From a virus (Duplodnaviria; Caudoviricetes), in IMG/VR virus record IMGVR_UViG_3300037067_017859, positions 45,284 through 109,283 of that record: a stretch of 64,000 nt of DNA, one strand, 5' to 3'. Of the stretch, positions 37,199 to 63,714 are shown piece by piece. How positions within the stretch are numbered: the first letter of the stretch is position 1; the number at the start of each line of letters is the position of its first letter. Position numbers and translations under genes: made by a program. The notes beneath the pieces are model-generated. The model saw only the letters and a program-made list of their open reading frames with translations. It ran no database searches and was not told where the DNA came from.

Positions 37199-37223
37199 AT
37201 TCTATCACTACACTGTCAAGCCC
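37199..37223 (-). promoter_or_regulatory. late-promoter-like motif, copy D
   Basis: GGGCTTGACA-GTGTAGTGA-TAGAAT. Confidence 0.7.
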
Positions 37224-37606
37224 TAGATATAGCCGAACATATCCTGATTTTCTCCTGTTATTGGAGGAGGTTCTCCGCCGGCGTCCGCCCCAATTAGAAT
37301 AATCCCGGGCCTTGCAATCGACACCGGATCGAGAAAGATATTGTCCGGCGCGGAAACGGTCTCAATTAAGGCCACAAATTCACATGCTTTTATGCTGGGC
37401 GCAGTCAATCTTGTGCGTTCGTCGAACCAAAGAAGTGATCCGCGACTAGAATCCTCCATCAAAAAAATAGTCCTCGGATTCAGGATCGACATCGGATCGA
37501 GAAGAACATTGTCCGGAGTGGAAGTGGTCTCGATAAGTTCGGGATCCGACTGCGCCTTTGTGGCTTCGTCTTTAATCAAACCGAATGCAAATGGATATAT
37601 GCCCAT
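37223..37606 (-). CDS. hypothetical virion-associated protein with internal duplication
   Basis: TPDNVLLDPMSILNP and APDNIFLDPVSIARP. Confidence 0.65.
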   Translation of the reverse strand: MGIYPFAFGLIKDEATKAQSDPELIETTSTPDNVLLDPMSILNPRTIFLMEDSSRGSLLWFDERTRLTAPSIKACEFVALIETVSAPDNIFLDPVSIARPGIILIGADAGGEPPPITGENQDMFGYI

Positions 37607-37609
37607 ATG

Positions 37610-38398
37610 TTAAGCTATTCTGATTGCTAATGTAAGGCCGTATCTAGACGTCATCCCACTGACCAAAAATGTCCCTAGAGTACTCCCATCAATCGGAATC
37701 TTAATTTTGGAATAACTATTAAATCTAGCCGTAACAAGCACTGATTGATAAGTTCTTCCGCAATATGCCATTGTGACCGTGGCGGTAGTACAGAAAACTT
37801 CTCTCGGGTGGAACATGTAATTTCCTGCTTTGGTATATATTAATGCACCACCTATGCCACTATTTTCATACTGTATAATTCTGGTTGTATTGGAAGCCGA
37901 ACCCGAACCATACATATTGAGATAGTGTGGGCCATCACCGTTAACCGTCCCGCCGTTAGCTCTCGTACCTCCACCGTAAGCCCATTTAGTGTGAGCATCC
38001 TGAGCTTCGGGAGAAAGATCAAGGATCCCTCCACATAAAAATTCACCTGTCCCGTTCGGCAACTGAAATTCTATGTGAACATGAAACTGCCCAGTAAAAA
38101 TATGCGCAAGATTGTTTACGCCTGCCGTAACATCAATCCGAGCTTCTCTTTGTAGAAGGGATTGTCCAAGTTGATCAAATACTTCAAGGCTAAGAGTTTG
38201 AGCACTTTCTCGGAGGAAATTGGCTGTAATAAATCTTCCAACGGCATCAACCGGACTTGTATATGAATTCCCCGTATTATCAGTCCACCCAGAGGCTACA
38301 AGTTCGGTTCCAATGGCCGTAAGCGCTGCCGCCACGTCGACTCCCGTAGGGGTACATAAATATCTGTAACTTGATCCTAAGTAATTAGGCACTGCCAT
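37610..38398 (-). CDS. tail appendage protein, paralog B
   Basis: beta-rich, Gly/Thr-rich; similar to 38400..39179. Confidence 0.65.
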   Translation of the reverse strand: MAVPNYLGSSYRYLCTPTGVDVAAALTAIGTELVASGWTDNTGNSYTSPVDAVGRFITANFLRESAQTLSLEVFDQLGQSLLQREARIDVTAGVNNLAHIFTGQFHVHIEFQLPNGTGEFLCGGILDLSPEAQDAHTKWAYGGGTRANGGTVNGDGPHYLNMYGSGSASNTTRIIQYENSGIGGALIYTKAGNYMFHPREVFCTTATVTMAYCGRTYQSVLVTARFNSYSKIKIPIDGSTLGTFLVSGMTSRYGLTLAIRIA

Positions 38399-38399
38399 A

Positions 38400-39179
38400 T
38401 TATGCCTTTCTTATAGCTATTCTTCTGGAACTCAGGGAGACAAAAGTGCAAACTTGGAAGACAGCCGTTACCCCACTATCAATGGTTAAGGTATATTCTG
38501 CGCCCCAAGCCAAACCCGAATCTAAGATAACAACTTGAGGAACACGTCCAAGATAAAAGTCGGAATCATCCGCAAAATCAAAAGGAGTGAATATTAAAGC
38601 TCCAGATGGACTTATAAGATGAGTGGTAACGCCATATGGGTCTCTATTAATTATGAAACCATTAGCGCCATAAGTTCTTGTCTGTGCCGGGCATGAATAC
38701 CATAAGTTCCAATATCTGTTGGTAGCTCCTCCCGCTGCTGTTAGCGGACCAGTGGTGCAAACAAAATTGGGGTTAACATTCCCGGGAGTTTCCGGCCAAT
38801 CCCTTAATCGGCAACACATAAAAGCAGTTGGCGTAGCAGTGCCCGACTCGACATAGACGTAATCCGGGCCACTGGCGATTATCACATTAACCCCACCCGC
38901 ATCAATCACCTGCCTTGGGTTATAAACCAGAATGCCAGTCCAATCGTTCACGGTATATTGAATTTCCGTCGCAGAAAGCCTCGCTACCGTCAATGTAAAA
39001 AAAGTGCCATCGACGCCAACCTCACTCTTAAAGGGACCTACCCCTGTTCCGCCTGTGTCCGTCCATGTTCCATTTGTGACCAATTCGGTATTTAATCCTG
39101 CGATAATGGTGTTCACATCCGTCACTGCCGCGAGAGTGGTGAATCTGAATGCGCTTGATAGAAAATCTGGTACGGCCAT
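38400..39179 (-). CDS. tail appendage protein, paralog A
   Basis: MAVPDFLSSAFRF versus MAVPNYLGSSYRY; TELV..GWTD; ends IAIRKA versus LAIRIA. Confidence 0.65.
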   Translation of the reverse strand: MAVPDFLSSAFRFTTLAAVTDVNTIIAGLNTELVTNGTWTDTGGTGVGPFKSEVGVDGTFFTLTVARLSATEIQYTVNDWTGILVYNPRQVIDAGGVNVIIASGPDYVYVESGTATPTAFMCCRLRDWPETPGNVNPNFVCTTGPLTAAGGATNRYWNLWYSCPAQTRTYGANGFIINRDPYGVTTHLISPSGALIFTPFDFADDSDFYLGRVPQVVILDSGLAWGAEYTLTIDSGVTAVFQVCTFVSLSSRRIAIRKA

Positions 39180-39180
39180 A

Positions 39181-40578
39181 TTAAACTCCGTAAATATTTG
39201 TCAAAACTCCAGTTATCACATATTTATCCTGGACACTGTTGTAAACCAGTTGGATCATATCGACAGCAGTAGGAGTTGTCGTCAAAATGATAGTAGGAAC
39301 ATTTGAAGGTTTAATAATCTTATTCCCGAAAGAAATCGTCCTGCCTCCCGTGCCATCTTGCGCTAATTCAATCCGCAAAATCTGTCCATCATAAGCTCCT
39401 GTTGGGTTTCCTAAAGTTCTATTTCCTCCAAGAGTTACTCTGAAATGATTCCCGAGGGTAGCGTCAGTAGCAATTATGGCTGCGTCAGACAAAGTTACGA
39501 CTTTCGGCCCCAATTGCCCATCCATCGCCCTGTTCCCGCTAATAGGAAGATATTGAGTATGGTCATCAGCCGGCGCGACCAGATTAGATAATTGAGAATG
39601 ATCGGTCGTTCCGATGGATTGGATATCGTGGCAATTTACTAAAATGGCTCCTTGGGTGGCGTGTTTGTACTCAACCGTAGCCACCAATTGCGCAAAAAGA
39701 GGGAAGCCGGGCTTGACGTTCGTCAATTCTCCCGCAGTTGTGGAACTGACATACAGAGAATCTCCTTCATTCCACATAGTCGTGTCAAATCCTGCCAGCC
39801 GGCCCGTTACCATAAGTCTAGTGAAATTGTTATCATTTACGGCGGCAGTCGTAACTCCTATAGCCTGCATGGTAGTCAATGAATCGGATTTTGCCGGAGA
39901 AAAATTGGGTTTCTGTCCGGTTGAACCAGTAAAATAAACAGCCTTAGCCTTGCCAATGGGGGAGCCACTCGTATTACGAGCTATTCTGAAGGTATCCTGC
40001 AAAAGTCTGCCTGTGAGCCCGGTAGGATCCATGGCCTCCATTGCATTTATTCCGGCGTCGGTAGCCGCATAAATTCGAAGATGCCCGGCAGCCGGGGCGC
40101 TAGGCGCTGCGCCACCTTCGTAATCGGTATAGAGAGTATGCATATTAGCTGCGTCTAGGATGGCTTCCGGACTTGGTTCAGCGATGCCTATCTTGCCGGC
40201 ATTTTCATAGATAATTGAATCTCCTATAGTGTCTGCGGCTGTAAACTTGGAGATTCTTCCAATCGTGCCGCTGCCCCCAATAAATCCCGTATGACCACTG
40301 GAAGCAAAATCAAGGTTACTTAAAGTTGGATGAGAATGAGTGTGCGCGGTCGGAGCGAATCCCGTATGCCCTGAAGTCGCATAAGACAAATGCGTTAATG
40401 CAGCATGGTCAGATGTACCACCCCCGCTACCAGAACTCTGGAGAGTAGCCACAGCTTTAGCAGTCGAACCTATCCCATTCTGGATTTGGCGCAGAATAAA
40501 ATTGAGTTTTTCATGTTTTGCGCGGTCATCCAGTCCAGAATCAATCTGATATATCTTTGGTTCGCTTGATTCGGTCAT
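39181..40578 (-). CDS. tail fibre protein
   Basis: His repeats DHAALTHL..SGHTGF, HPTLSNL..SGHTGF, DHSQLSNL..DDHTQY; C-terminal VTLGGNRTLGNPT...QDGTGGRT. Confidence 0.75.
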   Translation of the reverse strand: MTESSEPKIYQIDSGLDDRAKHEKLNFILRQIQNGIGSTAKAVATLQSSGSGGGTSDHAALTHLSYATSGHTGFAPTAHTHSHPTLSNLDFASSGHTGFIGGSGTIGRISKFTAADTIGDSIIYENAGKIGIAEPSPEAILDAANMHTLYTDYEGGAAPSAPAAGHLRIYAATDAGINAMEAMDPTGLTGRLLQDTFRIARNTSGSPIGKAKAVYFTGSTGQKPNFSPAKSDSLTTMQAIGVTTAAVNDNNFTRLMVTGRLAGFDTTMWNEGDSLYVSSTTAGELTNVKPGFPLFAQLVATVEYKHATQGAILVNCHDIQSIGTTDHSQLSNLVAPADDHTQYLPISGNRAMDGQLGPKVVTLSDAAIIATDATLGNHFRVTLGGNRTLGNPTGAYDGQILRIELAQDGTGGRTISFGNKIIKPSNVPTIILTTTPTAVDMIQLVYNSVQDKYVITGVLTNIYGV

Positions 40579-40581
40579 GGT

Positions 40582-43500
40582 CTAAAAACTCTGAGGGGGA
40601 ACAAGTTTTATTCTGGCGTATCCATCTTCCCCATTCATGGTTTTGATTTCGACTTCGCTCTTTTCCCAATAAAGCTGGAAGGCAAAGGATGATGTGAAAA
40701 TAAGTCTAAAAAGTCTTCCGCGAATGGCGCTCTCCAGATCTACTCGTATTTTGGAATGTCCTGTTGCTCTTCGATCTGCCACGATAGTTTTTGTCGAAGC
40801 CAGGACATCATCAGCATAGAGTTCCATCGTTACATCAGAATCCGGATTTTTCATGGCAATCCAGAAACGACGAATTATCTTTGTCCGATCGTAATTCATC
40901 AACTGTTCGTAAGTATCCGAAAAGGTCACATCGGCCGGATCCTTATCGATTACAAACCTCGCGCTATAAACTCTGACTCCTTGTGGCAGACAACAGAAAG
41001 GATCGAGGTAATCTTCGTCGACGGTGAGGCGTCCAAGTTTTCCGAAGGAATCCTTCTCAATAGAATGAGTCACCAATTGCCTGGTCGCACATTGAACGTC
41101 GAAGCTTTCCTTGATTGCGCCATCAAGCCAGAAGTCAAAGGTTATAGGTACATTGTTGGTATCGATATCCAGGACTACTTCTTTCCATAGCTTTGGATAA
41201 GGCCATTGTTCTTCTGACCAGGGCATCTGGAAACTATTAATCAGCGCCGGCTCTTCGATCACAGTAAATTTGTGGGCATAAACCTTAACTTCATTTTCTC
41301 CGGTCGGAACAATTTTCAATCTAACCAGAGTTCCTCTGATATCAGGAGGAAGCCCATAAAAGAATCTTTGCCGGCCCGTACTGGTTGTGTTTGCCCGGAT
41401 CGTAGTGGCTAAAGCTTGATCGACCTGAACCTGGATCTCCTCGAGAGGGGCTCCAAAGGTATCCAATTCAATCATCAATTCTCTGAAATATTTTTGAGTC
41501 GGGACACCGCAATCATCCCACTGTGTAACAAAGGTTCGGTGTCGAATTGGCTCAATCAATATCCGGTGAATGATCTTGTAGAATCTGGTTAGACCTGTGG
41601 CCGTTATTAAGGTCGTCGCCATCATCCTGATACGGGTTCTCCGGCAGAATTTACCTTCTGACACACCGACAAGAATTGGAAGGATCTTTTGCTCTCTCCC
41701 CGAAGTGATTACGCTGCCCATCGGATCTGGTTCAGCGCCGTCGAAAGAAAGCTGGACTGCAATTGCGTATCCCTGAGTATCCACGTCAAAGACATAATCT
41801 ATAAATTGCTTTTCTTGGTCGGGCATGCCAAGGTCATAATCTTTGGTATCCACAACCCAAGATATTCCCTGAGCGCCGTCTGCGCAGTAATCGACAAAAC
41901 CCTCCTCGAGTTGAAGAGGCCAATTACCGCCATAAAGATAGGAGACAGGTCCATCGAGGATGGAGGCCCCCATCGCCACATTGCAACCGACTAGAATGTT
42001 AGTATTGGGTTCACTAAATAGACATTGAGCGCCGTATCCATAAAAATGCCAGCGTTCATAGAGCATGTCCCAAACGTACATTCCATCATTTTTAATTGAG
42101 GTATCAGAGGACATTGGGAAACTGAAATACATCTTTGAATCCCAAAAGGCCATTGCAGCAAGGTATTCCCGGCCTTTTATCATCCCTGGCATGCTATTCA
42201 TGGTCTCATTTTTAAAGACCTGGTTTATGGGTTCGCTAATTTTACGACCAGATGGAAACTCATAAATTCCATCATATGCCTGCATATAAAGTCCGCGAGT
42301 CCCCCGCGCCAGGCCATGAGGATTGATCAAACCTTGGTTGACGGCTGTCGACGGCGCCGAATAATCGCTAAGGGTGGAACCTGTGATTCTATAGACTCGA
42401 GTCAGAGTAAAAACAAAGAGTTCTCCGTCATGTTCCATTACTCTTTGAATTTGCTCTGATCCGGCGCCAACATAGATATAATTCTCAGCCGGGAAGAGTT
42501 CTATTCTAACCCTCTTTGAAAATCTCAAACGATTAGGCGGCTCAGGGATTACATTTCCATCGGAATCTGTATAAGTTCCGCCCCATGTCCAAAGTCGATT
42601 ATCGTAAACCTCAATTCCCAATACGTTGTCTACAGGCAACTGGTTATCCAGTTCTGCGGGATCTCCTAATTCAGAATCAGGAATATTGTCTAAGAAGGCC
42701 GCCGGCGTTCCTCCTGAAACATAGTCTATCTCCGCAACGAATTGGAATTGCGTAATAGTGCCGCCCATCCTATATATTCTGATTTTGTCCGGATTTGCCA
42801 ATGGAGGAGTGGTGAACGGAGAAGGCGGAAAATACAAATTCACCTGTTCGTCGGTCAGGGGCCCGAGATTGTTAATAAATATATCAGACAGATCACTTTC
42901 GGTATCCGTCTTGCTGTCATAATAAGTGTAGGCCCATTGAAGATCGCTCCCGATTAATTTGCCAGTGGGAGAATAAGTTACACTATCGAAACTGACACTG
43001 TTGGTTTTCCCGCCTGTGGCTGGATCAATGTTGTCAATTTCAAGGCTGATCCCGCTAATCGTGTTCCATCCGAGGGCTGATTGAGTTTCCCCGCTATTAT
43101 TCTGAAAAACAAAATCAGTTTTAGCAATTTGAATTTCTGTCCAAGTGCCAACAACGAAGGTGTCAAAATCTGAAAATGTTCCCGTAGCGAAATACTGATA
43201 GTTTGATCCTGTATCTCCCGGGATATCGCTAACAACCAGAATGATTTTAATCGCCGCAGCATTGGCAATTGCCTCAGCACTGTTAAACTTCACCCAAACT
43301 TTTATATATTCTCCGGGGTCGGACGATCCCATATCAACGATGATGAAATTGCCATATTCATTGGTAAAAGCTTTTGTCGCTCTTCCCATGACTCCATCTC
43401 CGGTAATGTCTATCTGAATAGCATTCCCGGTTTTCCCGACCGCATCATTAGAAACGGTCCCTTTATTGCACAGAGGAACACCCAAAGAAGAAGGGTCAAT

Positions 43501-44880
43501 CCCTTCAGAGGGCTCGTCGTAAATGTCGGTTAGAGCCATCGGAGCGGCGTTTACCAATCTCAGGTTATCCGGATCCGTACCAACATAAAGATTCCAGGAA
43601 ACTGCGCCTACGGGAGCCGTGTCGGCTGCATCGTAAGTGTTGACAACATAAGCCAATCCAATTTTATCAATATACCTATGAGCGCGTCCCTTAAACCCCA
43701 TGAGAAGATGAGAAGCAGTAGCAGTCCCGGCCGGAACGTCTATGCTATAGGCGGTTGTCGTTATGGCGCCAGCACCGGAACCACCGTAGGAAACGGTTCT
43801 TTTATTGGTCGTGAGGATCATGGAATAGACGTAAGTTCCGGACAGGAAAACCCCATATCCTCCATGGATATTTGTTATATATTCATCGATATCCAGCGTA
43901 AGAGTGCTAACCGATCCTCCCTCGCCGCCATGCTGACCACCGTGCGCTGGACCATCAGTGATCGTACCATCCGGAGATTGATACACCAATTGAACCATGT
44001 CGATGTAATCACCCGCCAGGACTTTGATCTGATAAACCCTGGATCCGGCAGGAAACATCGTCAGATCATCAGTAAAGGCGTCTCCTCCAGCGCCGCCATA
44101 TTCAGAAGTATAGGCCATGGTAATGTCAGGCTTTTTCCAGAAAATTCGTGCGGATTTTTCTGGTGGAATCCAGACGTAAGGATTAGATATTCCGCTCGGA
44201 CAGCTTTCAACTGCGCTGCCATCAATAAAAGTATGTTTGGCGTAATACCATCGAGGTCCTAAAACTCCAGGACTATTTCCCCACCAAATCGTAGGACAAT
44301 AAGGCGCTGCGACTGCGGCGGCGTCTCCACCTGTCCATTTGGTGTAATCTTCGCAGGCTTCAATTACCGTATCTGTAGTTGGGACAACAGCTATCGATTC
44401 CAGAGGTTTTTCTGGTCGAGGGATTCCAATTCTTCTTAAAGCGTCGGCATTCCCTGAATGCTTCAAGAAAACAGTCCCATCCGCCATAATCATGTAGGGT
44501 TTTGTTTCTATGCCGCTCAAGGTATAGTTAGCAAAGAACGCCCGTGGGTCCACCCCAGTAGATAAATTAGAACCGCCTGATACTGGTACAAAATCTGATG
44601 GGATTGGAGAAACTTGAGCGATATATAATTGCCCACCGGCAATCACATATCGCCAAACATTTCCGTCATAATCTTTCATTAAGTAAGACGAACAAGGGAT
44701 TGAGGTCAAACCTGCATTTAAACGAGCGAAACCTTTTCTCACTGCAAGGGAATTCTCACGATCAGTGAAAACATTCACAAGCGCGGTGTAGGCGTCAATC
44801 GGAATCTCATCCGGAGCAGCCTTTAGAATAATGCCTTTATTGGCAAAAGTTATAGGGATACTCTTAATTTCCTCAGCCAT
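40582..44880 (-). CDS. tail nozzle/hub protein (P22 gp10 or tubular-B-like) with jacalin-like lectin insertion
   Basis: 1432 aa; N-terminal LVNV...LAVRKG; NRLW...RLRFS propeller segments; repeated C-terminal modules. Confidence 0.7.
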   Translation of the reverse strand: MAEEIKSIPITFANKGIILKAAPDEIPIDAYTALVNVFTDRENSLAVRKGFARLNAGLTSIPCSSYLMKDYDGNVWRYVIAGGQLYIAQVSPIPSDFVPVSGGSNLSTGVDPRAFFANYTLSGIETKPYMIMADGTVFLKHSGNADALRRIGIPRPEKPLESIAVVPTTDTVIEACEDYTKWTGGDAAAVAAPYCPTIWWGNSPGVLGPRWYYAKHTFIDGSAVESCPSGISNPYVWIPPEKSARIFWKKPDITMAYTSEYGGAGGDAFTDDLTMFPAGSRVYQIKVLAGDYIDMVQLVYQSPDGTITDGPAHGGQHGGEGGSVSTLTLDIDEYITNIHGGYGVFLSGTYVYSMILTTNKRTVSYGGSGAGAITTTAYSIDVPAGTATASHLLMGFKGRAHRYIDKIGLAYVVNTYDAADTAPVGAVSWNLYVGTDPDNLRLVNAAPMALTDIYDEPSEGIDPSSLGVPLCNKGTVSNDAVGKTGNAIQIDITGDGVMGRATKAFTNEYGNFIIVDMGSSDPGEYIKVWVKFNSAEAIANAAAIKIILVVSDIPGDTGSNYQYFATGTFSDFDTFVVGTWTEIQIAKTDFVFQNNSGETQSALGWNTISGISLEIDNIDPATGGKTNSVSFDSVTYSPTGKLIGSDLQWAYTYYDSKTDTESDLSDIFINNLGPLTDEQVNLYFPPSPFTTPPLANPDKIRIYRMGGTITQFQFVAEIDYVSGGTPAAFLDNIPDSELGDPAELDNQLPVDNVLGIEVYDNRLWTWGGTYTDSDGNVIPEPPNRLRFSKRVRIELFPAENYIYVGAGSEQIQRVMEHDGELFVFTLTRVYRITGSTLSDYSAPSTAVNQGLINPHGLARGTRGLYMQAYDGIYEFPSGRKISEPINQVFKNETMNSMPGMIKGREYLAAMAFWDSKMYFSFPMSSDTSIKNDGMYVWDMLYERWHFYGYGAQCLFSEPNTNILVGCNVAMGASILDGPVSYLYGGNWPLQLEEGFVDYCADGAQGISWVVDTKDYDLGMPDQEKQFIDYVFDVDTQGYAIAVQLSFDGAEPDPMGSVITSGREQKILPILVGVSEGKFCRRTRIRMMATTLITATGLTRFYKIIHRILIEPIRHRTFVTQWDDCGVPTQKYFRELMIELDTFGAPLEEIQVQVDQALATTIRANTTSTGRQRFFYGLPPDIRGTLVRLKIVPTGENEVKVYAHKFTVIEEPALINSFQMPWSEEQWPYPKLWKEVVLDIDTNNVPITFDFWLDGAIKESFDVQCATRQLVTHSIEKDSFGKLGRLTVDEDYLDPFCCLPQGVRVYSARFVIDKDPADVTFSDTYEQLMNYDRTKIIRRFWIAMKNPDSDVTMELYADDVLASTKTIVADRRATGHSKIRVDLESAIRGRLFRLIFTSSFAFQLYWEKSEVEIKTMNGEDGYARIKLVPPQSF

Positions 44881-44882
44881 AA

Positions 44883-45542
44883 TTAACCCGCCGCATTCAT
44901 TTGCAAGGCTGTTCCAAAAACCAACCTATTAGCCAGAGCAACTCCAAGCAGATATCTTTGCTGACAATATGCACTCCGGGCAATATCCTGCATGTCACCA
45001 TCTTTCCCGAGCGCCAGTGAAAGAACATTCCAACGAATATAGGGTTCCCAGGCATCTATAAAGGGGATGTCTTCCAAGTACCCGGCCGGATAAGCCACAT
45101 GCTCCACTGGAATAACCGTACAAAAGAATCTGAATGTTCCACCTGCTACCGGGCGCCGATCGACCTCGAGATCGTTCACATTCAAATGGTCCTCATGCCA
45201 ATAGCGCGGAGCTCCAGGAGAATTATTCCTCCAGTTTTGGTTTTCCCTGCTTAAATCCCAAGTCGTTTGCCGGCGCATTCTTTTTCCATTAAAACTAATT
45301 CTTTCAATATCCATTGCACCAGAGGGCTTTTGAAACAGTATGGCATTTCCAGCCGGTAGAATTATAGGGAGGTCTGAAACTACGATAGCAGTTCTCCGAA
45401 GGAAATCCTTCTCTGTGTAATTGATATAGCTAATCATTTCATCGGGGGTCCAGTAGGGCGCATGAGTCCCGAGCGCAAAAGTGTTATCTTTTTCGTGAAG
45501 ATCCTTTGCCACTTTAGATAAAACCTGGCCAACCGTTGTCAT
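44883..45542 (-). CDS. head-tail adaptor (tubular-A-like), paralog 3
   Basis: YWTPDEMISYINYTEKDF...PRYW...ALGKDGD. Confidence 0.65.
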   Translation of the reverse strand: MTTVGQVLSKVAKDLHEKDNTFALGTHAPYWTPDEMISYINYTEKDFLRRTAIVVSDLPIILPAGNAILFQKPSGAMDIERISFNGKRMRRQTTWDLSRENQNWRNNSPGAPRYWHEDHLNVNDLEVDRRPVAGGTFRFFCTVIPVEHVAYPAGYLEDIPFIDAWEPYIRWNVLSLALGKDGDMQDIARSAYCQQRYLLGVALANRLVFGTALQMNAAG

Positions 45543-46228: not shown

Positions 46229-46242
46229 TGGCGCTCACAGTG

Positions 46243-54362: not shown

Positions 54363-54372
54363 TTCGATCTCC

Positions 54373-54600
54373 TTAATAGCCTTGTCTGGTTTTCATATCA
54401 TCGGTAGAAGGAAGATCATCGGTATCAAGATCGAATGGAGTAATAAACTGCCCACCAGCCTTCACTCCACAATCAGGAACCCTAAAGGCCATTGCCGGAT
54501 CATCGGCTGATCTTCCATCCGGGATTTTGTGTCCTGTTGGCGCCTGATTGAATGTTGGGCATGGGCGCTGTGAATTTTCAGGAATTTCTTTGCGAGTCAT
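54373..54600 (-). CDS. hypothetical protein
   Basis: GGAGG SD; follows promoter motif C. Confidence 0.65.
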   Translation of the reverse strand: MTRKEIPENSQRPCPTFNQAPTGHKIPDGRSADDPAMAFRVPDCGVKAGGQFITPFDLDTDDLPSTDDMKTRQGY

Positions 54601-54615
54601 AAACCCTCCACATCT

Positions 54616-55287
54616 CTATTTTACATTGTTGCTGTCAAGTCTCACTGAAAGCTTGGGAAGTGCTTCGATAAAATTGGCCTCTCCTATTGGTTGAGCCATG
54701 CCCATCTGTTTCACGATTAGACTGGTATCACACCAAACCTGGAATCCCTTTTTAATCGCCCTCATGCAAAAGTGAAGATCTGCACTACGAGTCGAATTTT
54801 CAGGATAGAAGAAATAAGGCTCTCCTATTGCCTCGAGGACTTCCCGTTTTATGAGCATGACCCCGGTGCCCACTCCTCCAGTGACTTGGAATAACTCATT
54901 ATGAGGATAATCAAGAATTGGATGCGGTTCTCCCTTATCATCGATATCAAATACCAGGGGATCGAAGTTACCGGACGATCGGAAGAACAGCGGCGCAATT
55001 ATGTCCTTATCTCTCGCCAGGAGCCTCCCAATGATGTTGGGTGGACTGATAAGCATATCGTCATCGGCAAAGAGCAAATGAGTCGCTCCACCTTTCAGGG
55101 CAGTGTCACAGGATATATTACGGACCTTCTGTGTTGGAACTTTAGGTCCACCAACCAGCCAGCGGACAGAATATTCACCACGAGTCTCCGCCCGGCCGGA
55201 GTCCTGCGAAGCAAGAAGGAAATTCATTAAGGGTTCTGGATCCATTGCATGATAACAAGGCACAGAGGCTAAAACTCTTGGCAGCAT
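54616..55287 (-). CDS. GT-A fold glycosyltransferase inside the structural module
   Basis: RN...THLLFADDDM, GVGTGVMLIKREV, DLHFC...GFQVWCDT. Confidence 0.8.
   Translation of the reverse strand: MLPRVLASVPCYHAMDPEPLMNFLLASQDSGRAETRGEYSVRWLVGGPKVPTQKVRNISCDTALKGGATHLLFADDDMLISPPNIIGRLLARDKDIIAPLFFRSSGNFDPLVFDIDDKGEPHPILDYPHNELFQVTGGVGTGVMLIKREVLEAIGEPYFFYPENSTRSADLHFCMRAIKKGFQVWCDTSLIVKQMGMAQPIGEANFIEALPKLSVRLDSNNVK
54618..54640 (-). promoter_or_regulatory. late-promoter-like motif, copy C
   Basis: ACTTGACA-GCAACAATG-TAAAAT, overlapping the end of the glycosyltransferase gene. Confidence 0.65.
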
Positions 55288-55295
55288 AAAACTCC

Positions 55296-56507: not shown

Positions 56508-56522
56508 GGCATGCTCCAGGGT

Positions 56523-56559
56523 AAAACGGGAGTCCAGAAAGTTTCCCTCCTGGACTCCC
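56523..56559 (-). terminator. intrinsic terminator after the capsid/decoration genes
   Basis: GGGAGTCCAG / CTGGACTCCC stem followed by GTTTT on the minus strand. Confidence 0.75.
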
Positions 56560-56565
56560 TACTTT

Positions 56566-56814
56566 TTAGGCATTGCCTATAGCGAGAACCTTGCAATTTG
56601 CCAAGGATCCACTCAAGGCAAAAGTCACAGTCCCCGCTGAATAGGTTGCTCCTGTCGTCACGCCGGATACACTATTCTGAATGAAAACAGCCTCAACCTT
56701 TCCCAATCCACTGACCCACGTATCTCCATTATCAATGGCGGTAAAGGTTGCCAGAACTGCCATCCGGTTGCCAAAGTTCAATTGAATTTTGGCGCTTGGA
56801 GTTTGTGCTGGCAT
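56566..56814 (-). CDS. small capsid decoration-like protein
   Basis: 82 aa, beta-rich; strong GAGGAGG SD; in the capsid unit. Confidence 0.6.
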   Translation of the reverse strand: MPAQTPSAKIQLNFGNRMAVLATFTAIDNGDTWVSGLGKVEAVFIQNSVSGVTTGATYSAGTVTFALSGSLANCKVLAIGNA

Positions 56815-56826
56815 GGATCCTCCTCA

Positions 56827-57348
56827 TTACCAGATTAAGTTCTGGAGCAGGACCGAATTGGTTCCCGCCGTTGTATTTCGCGCCGTCAATGCAACACCAT
56901 AATTTGCATTGATGAAAACGCCGGCTGCTTGTCGACCGAAAGTGTTATCCGTTCCGTAGCAGCAACCATCACCAGCCGCAGTTGAAGCCGCGGTAAGAGC
57001 AGTGACGACGCCACCCACTTGAATCCAGCTATAATGTTGATCCGTAATAACACAACCAGCAACACCCGCGACCAGATTTACGCCGGCGGCGATCGCTGAA
57101 CTGATATCGCCTGTAGCAATAAAACTTCCCGCGGTCGGAGCCAGAGTTTTCCAGTAAAGGACTCCACCAGCTACCGCGGCAATATTATCGGAGCCATTAT
57201 CAAATTGGACATACCGATAGACATTGCCATTATGACGATACAGTACGCCAAGGGGAGGCTTAGCAACTAAATCGTCTGCATATCCCGGACCTGCCGAAGG
57301 TATCTCGACAGTTTCCAGGGTTCCAAATGTGAAAAGACCGTCTACCAT
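56827..57348 (-). CDS. capsid cement/decoration protein
   Basis: LG...GNVYRYV...WIQVGG; directly after the major capsid gene. Confidence 0.65.
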   Translation of the reverse strand: MVDGLFTFGTLETVEIPSAGPGYADDLVAKPPLGVLYRHNGNVYRYVQFDNGSDNIAAVAGGVLYWKTLAPTAGSFIATGDISSAIAAGVNLVAGVAGCVITDQHYSWIQVGGVVTALTAASTAAGDGCCYGTDNTFGRQAAGVFINANYGVALTARNTTAGTNSVLLQNLIW

Positions 57349-57372
57349 GGAATTACTCCTTTCGAGACCCTA

Positions 57373-58347
57373 TTACAGGGTATTTACTCCGGTGAGCATG
57401 AAGAACAGCCTTGGCGCCGGAATCAAAAGATTCCCGGAGAAAAGGTATTGGCCAGCGACGTCATCCGTGTTCTGCGCTTCCTTGAAACCTGTGAATCCGA
57501 ATTGATACTTCGGCAGGGTGGAAATCCAGAACTGGATGTATTTGGTATTCAGGCCGAAAATATATCCGGCAGGGGCATATTGATCGACGGTGATCGAAGA
57601 CCCATTCCATCTCAATGATTGGAAGCCGATCTTGGCAACATCGGTGTTCTCTTCGAGAAACCGTTGTTGTGGCTGGATCTTGTTCCAGATCATGTCCCAA
57701 ATTAACTGGCTGGTAACGATGAGATCGATATGTTCATTACCGAACCATGAGGCGCCATACGCAGCTTGCAGGCCAAGCATTGTGAATGGATTGAGGGTGT
57801 TGACGTATCCGTTGATGCCTTGGTTGTTGGTGCCGGCAACGATCCCGAGATCCGTACGGGTTATCCCGCCATAAGACGGATAGGTATTGCCGTTATCCAA
57901 AGCTTGTTGGAAACCGTCGAGGTTGATGGTCGCCGAATTAACTCCGGTTCCATCCAGGAAAATGTCCGTGCCAAGCAATTTGGCCATCTTGCCGGAAGCG
58001 TTTACCATCTTGCTTTCGACATAATTCATTGCGGCGTCCGGTCCACGAGCCAACACGTTATCAGTTCCGAACAATGTCACGTTGACATAGTAAAACTTCG
58101 GATTGACCTCGAGGGCAGTGTCGGTTTGCACGTACGTAATATTGAAGGTGCCACCGCGTTGGAATGCTCCGCCGTTCAATTCAGCGTACGCTATTGGGTG
58201 CCGAATAGTCGTACCACCTTCAAAGCGTTCTGCATTCCTCGTACGAAGCCGGGTGAAGACAGGAGATGATTTATACACGTTGTCCACGAGCCGTGGAACG
58301 ATATGTTTGTTCACCTTACCTGTTATGTCATCCCAAGTAAGAGCCAT
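57373..58347 (-). CDS. major capsid protein
   Basis: 324 aa; LVDNVYKSSP...GGTTIRHP...LDGFQ...YGGITR...GFQSL...YIFGLNTKY; follows the scaffold gene. Confidence 0.88.
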   Translation of the reverse strand: MALTWDDITGKVNKHIVPRLVDNVYKSSPVFTRLRTRNAERFEGGTTIRHPIAYAELNGGAFQRGGTFNITYVQTDTALEVNPKFYYVNVTLFGTDNVLARGPDAAMNYVESKMVNASGKMAKLLGTDIFLDGTGVNSATINLDGFQQALDNGNTYPSYGGITRTDLGIVAGTNNQGINGYVNTLNPFTMLGLQAAYGASWFGNEHIDLIVTSQLIWDMIWNKIQPQQRFLEENTDVAKIGFQSLRWNGSSITVDQYAPAGYIFGLNTKYIQFWISTLPKYQFGFTGFKEAQNTDDVAGQYLFSGNLLIPAPRLFFMLTGVNTL

Positions 58348-58564
58348 AACATTTACTCCATCAATAAAAGGTTACAAGTTTCCGCTTATGCGGATCTTCC
58401 GGCTAACGCTTGCTAGTCGGCTAATCTGCACTTGCCTCTGTCTTGCTGCCTTCCATCCATGGCTCCCCGGGATGCTCCCCGGTTCCACTTCTGGCTCGGG
58501 CGCCGCCATTGGGGCTCGTGCCTTAAAGGGGCCAGACTGCCTGGCCCCACCATCTCAGGGCCGC

Positions 58565-59404
58565 TTATACGCCCTTTCCTTCTGCCCGGAGTTCTGCCCC
58601 TATTAAATTCGAAAGCCTTGGATCTCCAAGGGGAATGTCATCAGGGATTCCGGTGTCCTTCTTTGCGATCCTGGATTGCAGAGGTCCGAGATTCGGTTCC
58701 CCCCCACTCCCCTGATCCAAAGGAAGGTTTGCAGCTTTTATACGATCATTGTATTTCTTCTCGTAATCCGCCTCGAGTGTAGCTTTGAGTTTCTCAATCG
58801 AGAAATCTTTAGTAAGAAACTCGTAGGCTGCCTCTATGTCACCGCCTCGCTTTTGCGCTTCCGCAATCAGTTGAATACGATCTAAAGGCTTTCCGTATTC
58901 AGCTTGGCATTTCTGCTGCAAGTCGATGACTTGAAAAATGGCCGCGCCGAGGTTATCTCCCCGCTTGGTCACTTCTTCTTCAAACTTTGCGGCTGTAATG
59001 AGTTCACCCTTTTCTATTTTTTGGGTAAAACCCTGAACTGCTTGTTCAAGGGTAGCTGTTTTCTCTCTGGCTTGAGATAGTTCCGCTCGAGCCTCTTTGA
59101 GAGCTTTTGTTATAGCAGCGTCCTCATCTCCCGATAGTCCATCATCGATCGAAGTTGCCTTTGCCGCTTCAAGCGCCGCAATCGTTTCTTTCAGCGTCTT
59201 GGATTCGGCTAAAGCTTCCTTGTACTGCTTATCCGCGCTAGAGTGCCAATCCTTCCACTCTTTTTCCTTAGCGGTAAGTTCGTTCATCTTGCGCGAATAA
59301 TCCGCCTGACGAAGTTGGCCTTCTTCAAGCATTTTGCGCGTTCCTTCTCTTTCAGCTTCCGGAAGTAAATCCACAAGCTTCTGGAGTTCCGGTGTTAACG
59401 CCAT
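58565..59404 (-). CDS. capsid scaffolding protein
   Basis: LRQADYSRKMNEL motif, acidic coiled coil; upstream of the capsid gene. Confidence 0.75.
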   Translation of the reverse strand: MALTPELQKLVDLLPEAEREGTRKMLEEGQLRQADYSRKMNELTAKEKEWKDWHSSADKQYKEALAESKTLKETIAALEAAKATSIDDGLSGDEDAAITKALKEARAELSQAREKTATLEQAVQGFTQKIEKGELITAAKFEEEVTKRGDNLGAAIFQVIDLQQKCQAEYGKPLDRIQLIAEAQKRGGDIEAAYEFLTKDFSIEKLKATLEADYEKKYNDRIKAANLPLDQGSGGEPNLGPLQSRIAKKDTGIPDDIPLGDPRLSNLIGAELRAEGKGV

Positions 59405-59458
59405 ACTTTTAATCCATTACTATCTACCCTGATTCGACATTTTCCGAAGTCCGTCAGT

Positions 59459-59473
59459 GTAAACCCGGTTTAC
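59459..59473. repeat. palindrome GTAAACCCGGTTTAC, copy 3
   Basis: intergenic, upstream of the scaffold gene. Confidence 0.9.
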
Positions 59474-59474
59474 T

Positions 59475-59870
59475 TTAGGCTAATGCCGGCCCTTGGCCTG
59501 GTCCTCCACGACCTTGCGGTGGAGGATTGCCTTGTGCTCCGGCGCCTCCATCACCCCCACCCACTTCAGGAGTTTGAGGCGATGATCTGACGGCTGACAA
59601 TCCAGAATCCAATATCGCTGTAGCTCGAGCGGCGAAGGGAGCCATTAACGGCTCTGTCTTAGCCATCTCCTCTAAGACCTTTTTTATTGCTTCAACCTGA
59701 GTCGTTACCGCTCCATGAGGATCCGGGGCGCCTGGGGCTGGCATTCCGCCTGCCCTTCTAGCTGCAATCGCTCCAAGCCCACCCCCAGGTTCAGACGGCG
59801 CAGGTTGCCCTTGCTGGCTGCCTATTGAGGGATCCGGCAAAGGAGGCATATCCAACCCTGGCGCTGGCAT
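59475..59870 (-). CDS. Pro/Gly-rich head-module protein
   Basis: 131 aa, low complexity with a central helix pair. Confidence 0.7.
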   Translation of the reverse strand: MPAPGLDMPPLPDPSIGSQQGQPAPSEPGGGLGAIAARRAGGMPAPGAPDPHGAVTTQVEAIKKVLEEMAKTEPLMAPFAARATAILDSGLSAVRSSPQTPEVGGGDGGAGAQGNPPPQGRGGPGQGPALA

Positions 59871-59872
59871 AG

Positions 59873-60028
59873 TTATTCAACCTTGCCTTTCTTTCCCGAT
59901 TCAGACTTCTGATTCGCAGAATCCGGTGTCGTGGACAGAGGAACAAAAGTGGCCGGCGATTGGATTCCAGCCGGTTGAGTATTGTCTCCATGACCCTCGA
60001 AACTTCCTTCTTTCTTTTCTTCAGCCAT
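59873..60028 (-). CDS. small hypothetical protein
   Basis: AAGGAG SD before MAEEKKEG. Confidence 0.65.
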   Translation of the reverse strand: MAEEKKEGSFEGHGDNTQPAGIQSPATFVPLSTTPDSANQKSESGKKGKVE

Positions 60029-60056
60029 AATAAATGATCTCCTTTTGAAATACTGG

Positions 60057-60239
60057 CTACCTGCGGTTTGTACCCCGCATACTCTTTCGACCTTTAGCTT
60101 TCCGATATCCGGCAAGCTCTTTGGCCTGATCTGCCGCTTCTGATTTCAGTTCCTTTTTGGAACCTCTCCGAAGCTTTTTAACTAAGCTTGCGTGTTCATT
60201 AACAAGCTCTTTTTTATCCATGCAGATCTTGGGACTCAT
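60057..60239 (-). CDS. small basic protein
   Basis: ELVNEHASLVKKL...; ends KGRKSMRGTNRR; TAATG coupling. Confidence 0.7.
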   Translation of the reverse strand: MSPKICMDKKELVNEHASLVKKLRRGSKKELKSEAADQAKELAGYRKAKGRKSMRGTNRR

Positions 60240-60385
60240 TACTTTCTCCCGGATCCGCGGCCGCCCTTCCGAGTTTTCTTCCTTTTGGCAAACCGTTCCT
60301 GAGATTCTTCCTTCTCTTCGCCGGCATGTTCCGCGGCTTCATGTTTTGCAAATTCTTCCGATGATCGATCCCCTTTACCTGTCAT
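60239..60385 (-). CDS. 48-aa protein with basic tail (not in the ORF track)
   Basis: ATGA and TAATG overlaps with both neighbours; MTGKGDRSSEEFAKHEAAEH...KRKKTRKGGRGSGRK. Confidence 0.75.
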   Translation of the reverse strand: MTGKGDRSSEEFAKHEAAEHAGEEKEESQERFAKRKKTRKGGRGSGRK

Positions 60386-60606
60386 CTTCGCCCTCCTCGA
60401 CTCGATTTTCTTGCAACTTTGCGCCCTTTACGATTCTTCGATTGCCCGGAGACGTGCAAGCCAATTGCCACTGCCTGGCTCGGGCTCTCAACTACAGGTC
60501 CGGTTTTGGATCCGGAATGGAGTTCTCCGCGCTTAAACTTGCTCATTTCTTCATGCATCCGTTTGCACTTTGCTTCTTTAGAAGCGCTTTTAGGTAATGT
60601 CGGCAT
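60382..60606 (-). CDS. DUF6496-like small basic protein
   Basis: MSKFKRGELHSGSKTGPVV...QAVAIGL; GGAGG SD. Confidence 0.8.
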   Translation of the reverse strand: MPTLPKSASKEAKCKRMHEEMSKFKRGELHSGSKTGPVVESPSQAVAIGLHVSGQSKNRKGRKVARKSSRGGRR

Positions 60607-60608
60607 AA

Positions 60609-60887
60609 TTACCTCCGTGAAAATCTTCGGCCATTACGAGCGCCAAGCTTCCGGGATTTTCGCGGCATGCTTTCTTTCCGCGAAGATAATTCATCAAGTC
60701 CATCCACCTCGCTCCGCATATGTCCAATAGCCTTTTCATGCCTTCCAGAATCTTTTTTGAGATCGAGATAATCACGGATTGTTCTGGAATCATTTTCGAG
60801 TCGATATTTTTCTTCTTGGATCAAATCTGGAGGCGCAGCCGCAGTATTGAACTTTGGGCCTTTAAAACTTTTCTTTTTCCTTGTCAT
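60609..60887 (-). CDS. small basic protein
   Basis: GGAG SD before MTRKKK; YRLENDSRTI; ends RNGRRFSRR. Confidence 0.7.
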   Translation of the reverse strand: MTRKKKSFKGPKFNTAAAPPDLIQEEKYRLENDSRTIRDYLDLKKDSGRHEKAIGHMRSEVDGLDELSSRKESMPRKSRKLGARNGRRFSRR

Positions 60888-60970
60888 TTTAATCTCCGGG
60901 ATTGGCTGGCGTTTGGCGGGTAGATAATGCCAGGCGCCAGCCAATCAACTTCGGAATTGCCGTCACACCC

Positions 60971-60995
60971 ATCCTACTACACCGCTGTCAAGCCC
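60971..60995 (-). promoter_or_regulatory. late-promoter-like motif, copy B
   Basis: GGGCTTGACA-GCGGTGTAG-TAGGAT. Confidence 0.7.
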
Positions 60996-61000
60996 CCCCC

Positions 61001-61375
61001 CTATCGGCGGGCTGTTGAACGTCCTGTTTTACGGGCTTTTCTGGTCTTGGTAATAACCTTCTCACCCTCATGTAATTTGGCTGGACCAGACTTTTTGATT
61101 CTGCCGCCCTTACGATAGCCTTCGGCAGACATAGCCGATGTCTTGCCTGCGGCTTTATTTTCTTTTCTCAAAAGCTCCATACCCATCTTTCGCGCCTGAA
61201 GCGCATTGTTTGAAAGAAGCTTTGAGTAATCATCCCCTAAAGGTTGAGGGTTCTTTATTTGTCCAAGAATATTTCTTGCACTATGATGTTCTCTGAACTG
61301 TTTTTCCTTTTTATCGGCGTAATCAAGCCAGTCTTTCGATTTCCCTGTTTTGGGCAACAATTCATTTTCAGGCAT
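61001..61375 (-). CDS. small basic protein with KGG motif
   Basis: YRKGGRIKKSG...LHEGEKVI; ends RKTGRSTARR. Confidence 0.7.
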   Translation of the reverse strand: MPENELLPKTGKSKDWLDYADKKEKQFREHHSARNILGQIKNPQPLGDDYSKLLSNNALQARKMGMELLRKENKAAGKTSAMSAEGYRKGGRIKKSGPAKLHEGEKVITKTRKARKTGRSTARR

Positions 61376-61377
61376 AG

Positions 61378-61782
61378 TTATGCTCCGATCGGTCTTCCAT
61401 TAGGACCAAATAATGTTCCCGGTCTGAAACCTTCAGGAGAGGTTACAGGAGAGGGAGATTCAATATTTGCTATTGGGCGCTGGACTTCAATTTCCCGATA
61501 GCAACCAACGCACTTAAATGAAAGACGGCCATCCCCAGTTTGGGCTTTTGCTTCATAAACCGATTTTTTATTTCTGCGTTTACAATCCGGCGCCGGGCAG
61601 GTAAAGACAACGTAATCCGATCCCTTTGCTCGTACAATTGAAACCATCCGGTGCTTTATGACTTTTTTTCGAGACACTAAGCTTTGAATGCCATCAAGTT
61701 CTTTCCGAACAGTTGTTGTCGGGTATCCACCTGGTCTGTTGACGATTTTTTCAGCATTTGCTTGAAAAACAATTCCGGGCAT
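61378..61782 (-). CDS. zinc-ribbon protein
   Basis: CPAPDC...CVGC; AAGGAG SD before MPGIV. Confidence 0.7.
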   Translation of the reverse strand: MPGIVFQANAEKIVNRPGGYPTTTVRKELDGIQSLVSRKKVIKHRMVSIVRAKGSDYVVFTCPAPDCKRRNKKSVYEAKAQTGDGRLSFKCVGCYREIEVQRPIANIESPSPVTSPEGFRPGTLFGPNGRPIGA

Positions 61783-61792
61783 ATTGCTCCTT

Positions 61793-63685
61793 CTATATAG
61801 CGGCCGCATTCGACTGAGTGGCATTGCCGACTTTTTCCAAAGCTCCAGGAGTCAAGCCCCCGCCGCCGCCTGTCGCGCCCTGCTTTTGTCTCATAGCTTG
61901 GGCCAGAATATTGGCGCCTTCTTCATCGATGCCTTTTCTGACGGATTCATACAATCCACCGAGGTCAAGAGAATCGAGAAGATTTTTAAGGTCCATGTCT
62001 CCCATACTACGGAGTCGAATCATAAGGGCTTGCTGTGGCATTCGGGCTGATTTGAGAAGGGATCCGGGAACCATAAGGAAAGTAAACTTCTTCCAGTGTT
62101 CTTCGGCCTTATCTCCTGACGGCACCATTGTTCCGGGATCATAATCAAAATCCTCCCAGGTGAGACCGTCACTGCCAAGCAATTGCATCCGGCGCTTTAG
62201 GGTATAATATTGAAAAGCATTAGGAACCCATTGCTGGCCAACCTGCTTCATAAAATCTTCAATGTAGCGGACCTTTAACCTGACGAGAGTTTGTTGTCCT
62301 TCTTTCATTGACTCGATAGTGTCACTGGCCGGGACGATACCGCGGCGAGACATACTGCCCATATCCAGGAAGCCGCTTTGGCTATCCAATTCCTGTTGAG
62401 CATAGAGCATTGTCTGAAAGACAAATCCCGGAAGAACAGGAGAAGGGGCATAAGTCGGAGCAGCAATAGAACTCGGGCTATAGAAGATCTTGGCATTCGG
62501 CATATTCGGGTCAAGGCTTTTCTTTACCGCGGCTCCGAAGGCATTATCAGGAGCAAGTAGCATCGGGTTGACAGCCTTCTTGACCGCATCCAGAATGCCT
62601 GCAAGTACATTATTCATGACATCTTGCAATGGCATCTGGTTTCTAAATTCCGATATGCCTGGCCATTGCCATGGCACACGGTTTAGTCTAAGGCAGGAGA
62701 ATGGGAACATCCCATGATAGAATGGGTTGGGTCCGTCGAAAAGTACCACGGGTCCTCCCATAATAATAAGGCGTCCTCGAGGGTACAGTTTCTCTCCAGG
62801 ATGAACCATATATCCATAATCCCCACTTTGCTGTCCTCCATTGCCAACCCAAACTTCACGGTTTGATGTATTCCTTTGTGAATCCCGGACCCAAAATTCC
62901 CGATATAAAGCCATGGGAATAGCTGATTCCCGGATCTGAGTTGAGGACTGTCCAAATAGCCGGCGCATTTGCGGAGACATAACCTGCATGCCTCGAGTCC
63001 AAAGATTCTGATTCGGAGTACTCGTGTATTGTGAATATTCCTTGTCGACAGGGACGCGAAAGCCACGGAGAGGATATTTCTCTTTGAACCAACTTAGAGG
63101 TTTTGGGCAACGGTAAATGACACCCATTGCCCTTTGCAGAGTATGAGAAGGCCGGATTGGAATCAGATCCATAGCGCCAAGGGGAATAAGCTCCATTTCC
63201 CCATCGCCATTCCTTAGATCCGGGTTCCACATCAGCCGGCCATATCCGATTGTCAGAGCGGCATGAATGATGATCATTGCCAGACTCATATCGATATCTT
63301 CATTCGTGAACCAGGCCCCGATCATTTTATTCAGAACTTTGGCATGCTGATCGTAAAGCTTATTGTTCGATTTAATTTCGAATGAAGGTCGAATATCAGT
63401 GAGGTAGGATATCAATTGAACCAGATTGGTCCATAGCCGATTGGCGACCGGCGCGGCTTTATAGCTTGGCCGGCGCTCAACCCACTGTTTTCCCATCAAG
63501 TAATTGATTGCGCGATCAATTTGGACAATCTCATCATTGCGTTCGAGATCGTCTTTAGCCTCTTCAAAAACCGCCTCACACCATTTGCTGATAATTACAT
63601 CGTGGGCGTTTTCTTGAATTGGCCATGTTTTCCCCGAAGGGTCAAACGAGTACCAGCCCGGGAGATCCAAAGCATTATCCTCCAA
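61793..63685 (-). CDS. portal protein (P22/podovirus-like)
   Basis: 630 aa; YLMGKQW...P, RPSF, GYG, NPFYHGMFPF, WPGIS...PLQ..MN; first large gene of the head module. Confidence 0.88.
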   Translation of the reverse strand: MEDNALDLPGWYSFDPSGKTWPIQENAHDVIISKWCEAVFEEAKDDLERNDEIVQIDRAINYLMGKQWVERRPSYKAAPVANRLWTNLVQLISYLTDIRPSFEIKSNNKLYDQHAKVLNKMIGAWFTNEDIDMSLAMIIIHAALTIGYGRLMWNPDLRNGDGEMELIPLGAMDLIPIRPSHTLQRAMGVIYRCPKPLSWFKEKYPLRGFRVPVDKEYSQYTSTPNQNLWTRGMQVMSPQMRRLFGQSSTQIRESAIPMALYREFWVRDSQRNTSNREVWVGNGGQQSGDYGYMVHPGEKLYPRGRLIIMGGPVVLFDGPNPFYHGMFPFSCLRLNRVPWQWPGISEFRNQMPLQDVMNNVLAGILDAVKKAVNPMLLAPDNAFGAAVKKSLDPNMPNAKIFYSPSSIAAPTYAPSPVLPGFVFQTMLYAQQELDSQSGFLDMGSMSRRGIVPASDTIESMKEGQQTLVRLKVRYIEDFMKQVGQQWVPNAFQYYTLKRRMQLLGSDGLTWEDFDYDPGTMVPSGDKAEEHWKKFTFLMVPGSLLKSARMPQQALMIRLRSMGDMDLKNLLDSLDLGGLYESVRKGIDEEGANILAQAMRQKQGATGGGGGLTPGALEKVGNATQSNAAAI

Positions 63686-63689
63686 CTCC

Positions 63690-63714
63690 AGTGTAACTGA
63701 TCGCTGTCAAGCCC
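63690..63714 (-). promoter_or_regulatory. late-promoter-like motif, copy A
   Basis: GGGCTTGACA-GCGATCAGT-TACACT. Confidence 0.7.

Follow-up and report, generated by a model that had tools for sequence, protein, structure and literature searches.

The late region of an uncultured tailed phage (Duplodnaviria; Caudoviricetes; IMG/VR virus record IMGVR_UViG_3300037067_017859) raises the question of how its genes are transcribed, since a perfect −35 hexamer (TTGACA) recurs there at only 9 nucleotides (nt) from a −10-like hexamer (TAnnnT). The window, i.e., the whole stretch of DNA that was analyzed (64,000 nt), comprises the last 64 kb of the 109,283-bp record; positions refer to the window unless assigned to the genome. 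In a preliminary description made from the letters alone, four such sites had been proposed to represent a phage-specific late promoter class. They are probably late promoters, read by the host RNA polymerase together with a phage-encoded factor, and the class is predicted to be common to the clade of this phage. The four sites are:

37192..37224, minus strand: predicted late promoter of the gene for a protein of 205 amino acids (aa; 36553-37170), with GGGC, TTGACA at 37219-37214 and TAGAAT at 37204-37199
54611..54643, minus strand: predicted late promoter of the 75-aa gene (54373-54600), with GAGAC, TTGACA at 54638-54633, N9 and TAAAAT at 54623-54618
60964..60996, minus strand: predicted late promoter of the basic-protein cluster, with GGGGC, TTGACA at 60991-60986, N9 and TAGGAT at 60976-60971
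63683..63715, minus strand: predicted late promoter of the portal gene, with GGGGC, TTGACA at 63710-63705, N9 and TACACT at 63695-63690

The pattern TTGACAG-N8-TANNNT matches the minus strand at 37199-37219, 54618-54638, 60971-60991 and 63690-63710, exactly where it had been described. These are the sole copies in the record, with none on the forward and four on the reverse strand of all 109,283 bp, and none for the reversed-pattern control. In terms of CTTGACAG-N8-TAnnnT, four copies in the 109-kb genome compare with 0.09 expected (mean of dinucleotide-preserving shuffles, none of which reached four). All four copies are on the late-gene strand at gene boundaries: three occupy short gaps between co-directional genes, and the one at 54638 runs into the end of the 223-aa gene upstream, its stop codon included. 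The GGGC reported in front of three sites was likewise found, the fourth site carrying GAGAC, and no −10-like hexamer is present 16-18 nt past any of the four TTGACA boxes. The claim that every site lies just upstream of a Shine-Dalgarno sequence and start codon holds for three of them, where Shine-Dalgarno-bearing start codons follow 17, 19 and 28 nt past the hexamer. It fails for the site at 60991, which is separated from its start codon at 60887 by a structured leader of 83 nt.

Transcription would be predicted to start at 37192, 54611, 60964 and 63683, respectively. At the 37219 site, the 9-nt spacer ends in TGA and the predicted start is the G of a T-G dinucleotide at 37192. In case of the portal gene (61793-63685, minus strand), the predicted start at 63683 is located downstream of the first codon of the longer open reading frame. 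A translational start at TTG 63670 is therefore likelier than one at 63685; most likely the portal protein starts there, yielding the conserved sequence M-D-L-P-G-W.

The same two-block motif was found in ten related viral contigs. Among 16 viral loci with portal proteins 62-98 % identical to that of the phage studied here, 12 contain, within 40 nt before the portal start, (GGGG)C/A-TTGACA and, past 8-9 nt that differ from locus to locus, TAnnnT, with a Shine-Dalgarno sequence behind it. Counts over the whole records of five relatives yielded 24 copies on the late-gene strand and two on the other strand (controls, 0-2 per record), and five further, partial relatives contain 2-5 copies each (controls, 0). 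TTGACA...TAnnnT was also scored at all spacers from 0 to 30 in this phage (G000) and, over the full length of their records, in four relatives (G002-G005, GC content 41-58 %; the record of G005 is partial). On the late strand of these five genomes, 17 sites have a spacer of 9 and six a spacer of 8, whereas the background is 1-2; a smaller maximum appears at 16-18, and the other strand is flat. The G005 lineage prefers a spacer of 8, the others one of 9. One-mismatch variants are rare, and most of them prove to be canonical promoters with 17-nt spacers. Across all viral contigs, GGGCTTGACAG-N8-TANNNT matched at least 100 stretches and an N12 control at least 118, and no inference on spacing is drawn from these numbers.

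The regions upstream of orthologous genes, chosen without reference to the pattern, were compared as well. Within 130 nt upstream, the short-spacer motif is present for the portal gene in four of the five genomes and for the 75-aa and the 205-aa gene in all five, despite diverged spacer sequences. Orthologues of the 75-aa gene in G002, G003, G004 and G005 are preceded by the same motif. For the 205-aa gene, short-spacer sites are found in G002 and G003 and, with TTGACT and TTGACC, in G004 and G005, respectively. The 60991 site has orthologues in G004 and G005, where the same conserved leader box follows. Hence, a spacing of 8-9 nt is maintained in relatives in front of the same genes while the spacer sequence drifts, and random positions or the opposite strand do not contain the motif as often. 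Loss of the spacing in relatives and an equal frequency of the motif at random coding positions had been named as grounds for abandoning the proposal, and neither was observed.

The fine structure of the sites was derived from a matrix of the 17 spacer-9 sites, with counts taken from all 23 sites. The consensus has a G-rich GGGGC and TTGACA followed by G. Five variable positions separate this part from T(G/A)n and TA(a/g)a(a/c)T, and another five bases lead to T-G and a G-rich ribosome-binding site. Both hexamers are of the sigma-70 type, but the spacer is 8-9 nt long instead of 17 ± 1 nt. A TGn directly before the downstream hexamer, as in extended −10 elements, occurs at 10 of the 23 sites (P about 5e-7), yet at only one of the four sites in the window. 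T-G at positions 6-7 past the hexamer is found at 11 of the 23 sites and at all four in the window, and start codons cluster 14-19 nt past the hexamer. These features fit a true −10 element from which transcription would start, at a pyrimidine/purine step, about 7 nt further on; since orthologous sites share ancestry, they do not constitute independent proof.

Ordinary promoters exist in the same genomes and serve as a contrast class. Three of them had been noted in the early region, and all three are indeed canonical:

3285..3314, plus strand: canonical promoter, TTGACA-N18-TAGAAT, in the divergent early intergenic region
3684..3711, minus strand: canonical promoter, TTGACA-N16-TATGAT, in the same divergent intergenic region as the promoter at 3285
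18450..18479, minus strand: canonical sigma-70-type promoter, TTGACA-N18-TATAGT, at the head of the recombination/replication module

Upstream of the Rad52-like gene that opens the replication module, TTGACA-N16-18-TAnnnT is present in all five genomes. Two promoter geometries thus coexist, each conserved at its own genes, and because the replication module retains a canonical promoter with a spacer of 16-18 nt, the short-spacer class represents a distinct mode of recognition. In the late 20 kb of the window, canonical promoters or terminators are not enriched (30 found versus 29.8 expected). The canonical promoter at 18479 is followed by a leader of approximately 70 nt (18380-18450, minus strand), which extends to the Rad52-like gene and contains sequence blocks common to the five genomes.

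Conserved spacing, orthologous positions and the separate canonical class thus support the proposed phage-specific late promoter class, as far as this can be judged from comparison of genomes. In the mechanism envisaged, TAnnnT would function as −10 element for host RNA polymerase carrying the primary sigma factor, assisted at about half of the sites by TGn as extended −10, and transcription would begin at the G approximately 7 nt past the hexamer, directly before the Shine-Dalgarno sequence. The invariant TTGACA (consensus GGGGC-TTGACA-G) would occupy positions of about −27 to −22, taking the place of the −35 element. A spacer of 8-9 nt puts the upstream hexamer approximately 27 Å and 270 degrees away from the reach of flap-bound region 4 of sigma. 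For region 4 in its regular position on the beta-flap, the box would be too close by 8 bp and would face another side of the helix. Because TTGACA at this position should be unusable as −35 element by the unmodified holoenzyme, a phage-encoded intermediary protein would be needed. Such a protein could act in either of two ways, which are considered about equally likely: as a DNA-binding activator that occupies the box and contacts the polymerase, in the manner of T4 MotA or P1 Lpa, or by freeing region 4 from the flap such that region 4 itself binds the perfect −35 sequence at its new position. One may tentatively speculate, in a specific form of the latter, that a small phage protein detaches region 4 of host sigma from the beta-flap during initiation and that region 4 then binds TTGACA at −27 to −22. 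That the box corresponds exactly to the −35 consensus in lineages whose GC content ranges from 41 to 58 % suggests a module of the region 4 type as its reader.

Comparison with known systems reveals the same logic, implemented differently. Middle promoters of phage T4 combine a sigma-70 −10 element, with TGn in about half of them, and a MotA box 12 ± 1 bp upstream (PMC2988021). The sites described here are alike in keeping the −10, in having TGn at about half of the sites and in replacing the −35 by an asymmetric, phage-specific box nearer to the −10, such asymmetry being expected for a monomeric reader. However, the T4 box reads (a/t)(a/t)(a/t)TGCTTtA at 12 ± 1 bp and differs from the host −35, whereas the box here is TTGACA(G) at 8-9 bp and corresponds exactly to the host −35 consensus; furthermore, the T4 system has both AsiA and MotA, domains of which are encoded in none of the six frames here. 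In phage P1, 11 late promoters carry an inverted repeat of 9 bp that serves Lpa (PMC10695390), and six of them, read from AF234172, conform to AAGTGACTT-N4-TAnnnT. P1 late promoters, served by Lpa and host SspA, resemble the present sites in the TAnnnT −10, in a conserved promoter-proximal box in place of the −35 and in the number of copies heading late operons (about 4-11). The P1 box is a 9-bp palindrome (AAGTGACTT) located 4 bp from the −10 and centred at −22, in contrast to the asymmetric box here, which lies 8-9 bp away, is centred near −24.5 and is preceded by a G-run. Given these differences in box sequence, symmetry, spacing and proteins, the sites fall outside the T4-middle and P1-late families.

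A further precedent is the Q-lambda complex at PR', in which region 4, released from the flap-tip helix, binds a −35-like site, with the same DNA contacts, at much less than 17 bp from region 2 on a −10-like element (PMC9388147). A repositioned region 4 is thus physically possible, and compressed sigma-70 promoters might involve, at the stage of initiation, a repositioning comparable to that in the Q-lambda loading complex. The latter is, however, a paused elongation complex at one promoter-proximal site with adjacent elements, unlike the initiation-like arrangement at several gene boundaries observed here, with elements 8-9 bp apart. Canonical and extended −10 sigma-70 promoters share the hexamers, TGn being present at 10 of the 23 sites, and differ in the spacer (17 ± 1 versus 8-9). 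Promoters of T7-like polymerases are continuously conserved over approximately 20 bp, in contrast to the two blocks with non-conserved spacer found here.

The preliminary description had recognized no such factor in the window, and domain searches and a Pfam screen agree: neither sigma factors nor phage RNA polymerases nor any of the known appropriation proteins are recognizable. A six-frame search of the genome retrieved no Sigma70 r2, Sigma70 r4_2, AsiA or MotA C-terminal domains, the Sigma70 domains being those to be expected of a phage sigma factor of the phiEco32 gp36 or SPO1 gp28 type. The AsiA/MotA models PF09010 and PF09158 gave no match at E ≤ 1 in six frames, a result that very divergent analogues could escape. 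No candidate for a T7-type RNA polymerase (PF00940) was obtained, with a control that likewise matched nowhere. The Pfam screen of the 160 predicted proteins contained no sigma factor, antiterminator or known late activator among the families listed (in one case the best 25 of 41), and a phmmer search against six-frame translations of the five genomes yielded no homologue of P1 Lpa (best E value 0.09). A Sigma70_r4 match in a 95-aa protein (genome 20397-20684; 16.8 bits, below the cut-off) was dismissed as a mimic of sigma region 4, since the protein scores better as Xre-type helix-turn-helix (HTH_31/HTH_3) and orthologues were found in only two of the four other genomes, none being detected in G004 and the partial G005 record. 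A conserved 346-aa protein (phrog_13782; 17339-18379, minus strand) was also dismissed as factor, as it folds like a Rad52/Sak-type single-strand annealing protein and fits its neighbours SbcCD and SSB.

Unknown non-structural proteins conserved in all five genomes are few. Two of them are encoded by overlapping genes in the replication module:

10547..11359, minus strand: ParB/KorB/Noc-type helix-turn-helix protein of 270 aa, DNA-binding domain at residues ~38-150, present in all five genomes
11283..11684, minus strand: orphan gene of ~133 aa, a real gene conserved at 41-55 % identity in all five genomes

For the 270-aa protein, Foldseek matched 6y93_A with a probability of 0.90 and a target TM-score of 0.66, and VIA-align matched 6s6h_B (Z 6.3), KorB 8qa8_A (Z 5.8) and 1r71_A (Z 5.1), values that are modest for a helical domain. 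This protein is a weak candidate for reading the TTGACA box and might equally well serve replication or partition. The 133-aa orphan, which the preliminary description had named as an unproven candidate for the factor, is a weak candidate for a partner of that factor; it has no Pfam or PDB-sequence match, and neither do distant members of its family, which comprises about 30 clusters in 1.8 billion representatives. Within IMG/VR it occurs in the same clade only, so that its co-occurrence with the motif has no independent power. The orphan gene and the beginning of the ParB/KorB-like gene share 77 nt, which are read in different frames (10547-11684, minus strand). In the distant relative P0031 (368 aa), the orphan is fused to a full-length ParB-like homologue (hhalign probability 100 %, E value 6e-53). 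This fusion suggests that the two proteins form one functional unit, a sequence-specific DNA binder, which in the present phage is perhaps a frameshift product. That this pair represents the late-promoter factor has a rather low probability, and the pair sits where a replication initiator would be located.

Other interpretations of the motif have to be weighed against that of a promoter read by host polymerase with a phage factor. Two blocks at a fixed spacing are typical of sigma factors, and a phage sigma too divergent for the domain models, be it a short-linker two-domain protein or a pair resembling T4 gp55/gp33, would have its −35- and −10-reading modules only ~15 bp apart from centre to centre. 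The preference of the G005 lineage for a spacer of 8 instead of 9, a change of 1 nt that looks like co-evolution with a phage protein, and the many genes of this phage without annotation agree with this possibility. It is nevertheless unlikely: apart from the generic helix-turn-helix cross-hit of the Xre-type protein, none of the Sigma70 r2, r4_2 and r4 models matched in six frames at E ≤ 1, the Pfam screen did not return a sigma factor either, and both blocks keep the primary-sigma consensus (TTGACA, TGn, TAnnnT), which would be unexpected for a divergent sigma. Less likely still, the sites could act without initiation, as sigma-dependent pause or factor-loading sites of the Q type for polymerase travelling along the late array. 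The Q-lambda loading complex also uses a −35-like box close to a −10-like hexamer (PMC9388147), and read-through is possible because nearly all genes between ~37 kb and, across the junction of the record, 51 kb are co-directional. This explanation is rated low because of the gap of 8-9 bp, where the lambda elements are adjacent, because of the number of sites (4-7 here, one promoter-proximal site in lambda) and because they are far from any canonical promoter upstream. Moreover, the location of T-G at the predicted −1/+1 and the constant distance between the sites and the Shine-Dalgarno sequence suit initiation, and no antiterminator domain occurs among the Pfam families listed.

That every motif-carrying genome encodes a ParB/KorB-type protein, with a handful of sites per genome as for parS, would agree with TTGACA being the binding site of this or another DNA-binding protein in partition, condensation or packaging, the TAnnnT being incidental. 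Centromere-like sites, however, are palindromic and independent of orientation, in contrast to asymmetric sites confined to one strand, at fixed distance from a −10-like hexamer and start codons and in front of the same genes; this explanation is thus very improbable. As little probability is assigned to a function of the motif in RNA, as processing site or translational operator before ribosome-binding sites, even though it is strand-specific and located 6-8 nt upstream of the Shine-Dalgarno sequence at most sites. The regions of the four sites share no RNA fold and none of them is unusually stable (z −1.1 to +1.1), no Rfam family was found in the window, the motif is 83-89 nt away from the start codon at one conserved site, and its blocks coincide with elements of the DNA promoter consensus, TGn included.

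Several observations weigh against late promoters of the proposed kind. The terminase, capsid and giant-protein genes have no such motif upstream, the portal gene of G002 is not directly preceded by it, and some of the copies in relatives lie inside genes and are possibly chance matches. As the late genes form one long co-directional array, they could also be reached by read-through from upstream promoters. No RNA run containing the late region is listed; the runs containing this phage are DNA only, from groundwater and landfill metagenomes. The conserved DNA-binding candidates for the factor are all encoded in the replication module and may serve replication. Finally, the only hint to the host, a weak one, comes from a low-coverage contig of 6.4 kb (JADFXL010000163.1), binned into an Alphaproteobacteria metagenome-assembled genome, which carries a capsid gene 92 % identical to that of the phage.

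With respect to genome context, the products of the late block comprise a portal protein of the SU10/P22 type, adaptor proteins, the major head protein, an internal virion protein and a 4,231-aa polyvalent protein. Beyond it, the recombination/replication module encodes the Rad52-like annealing protein, SbcCD, SSB, DnaB and a DnaC-like loader. Neither PHROGs nor Pfam yielded an assignment for the small conserved genes in the vicinity of the terminase gene. Nucleotide and protein searches revealed no close cultured relative, the best matches being the capsids of Myxococcus phages Mx8 and Mx9 at ~27-29 % identity; the clade consists of uncultured phages of about 100-110 kb. Both ends of the record (genome 1-147; window 63715-63945) match the same small gene of relatives. 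The record seems to be cut inside, or duplicated at, a gene just upstream of the portal promoter, and the genome is probably circularly permuted or terminally redundant. In the part of the genome outside the window, a homologue of PurZ-like adenylosuccinate synthetase is encoded (genome 16604-17827, minus strand; phrog_1211, E value 1e-56; Pfam Adenylsucc_synt, 2.5e-47), as are HD-domain, dUTPase and dCTP-deaminase-like proteins. Adenine in the phage DNA may be replaced by 2-aminoadenine, which would bear on promoter melting.

Two untranslated elements were observed in the late block. The 83-nt leader downstream of the 60991 site (60887-60970, minus strand) has a conserved 5' box, GACGGCAA-CUCCCGA, followed by a long hairpin whose stem sequence differs among G000, G004 and G005. 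Since the ribosome-binding site is able to pair with the 5' box, the leader may represent a translational control element. Directly upstream of the major capsid gene, G000, G002 and G004 share a conserved non-coding stretch of approximately 100 nt that includes a small hairpin (58348-58450, minus strand); this stretch contains no promoter motif and may be a processing or stabilizing element of the capsid mRNA.

Re-programming of RNA polymerase has largely been learnt from the late switches of phages, as exemplified by T4 AsiA/MotA, P1 Lpa and lambda Q. In the clade described here, an exact host −35 element is kept at a position unusable by the unmodified holoenzyme, beside ordinary promoters in the same genomes, and the phage probably re-tools host RNA polymerase in a manner not yet described. 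If region 4 is repositioned, this would constitute a new mode of sigma appropriation, in which the class of promoters is switched without a new DNA-binding specificity; if a phage activator reads the box, it would belong to a new activator family whose site mimics a −35 element. The consensus GGGGC-TTGACA-G-N5-T(G/A)n-TAnnnT serves as a marker of late transcription units in this group of uncultured phages and also corrects gene starts, as in case of the portal gene. A compact, orthogonal pair of promoter and factor may be looked for in this clade.

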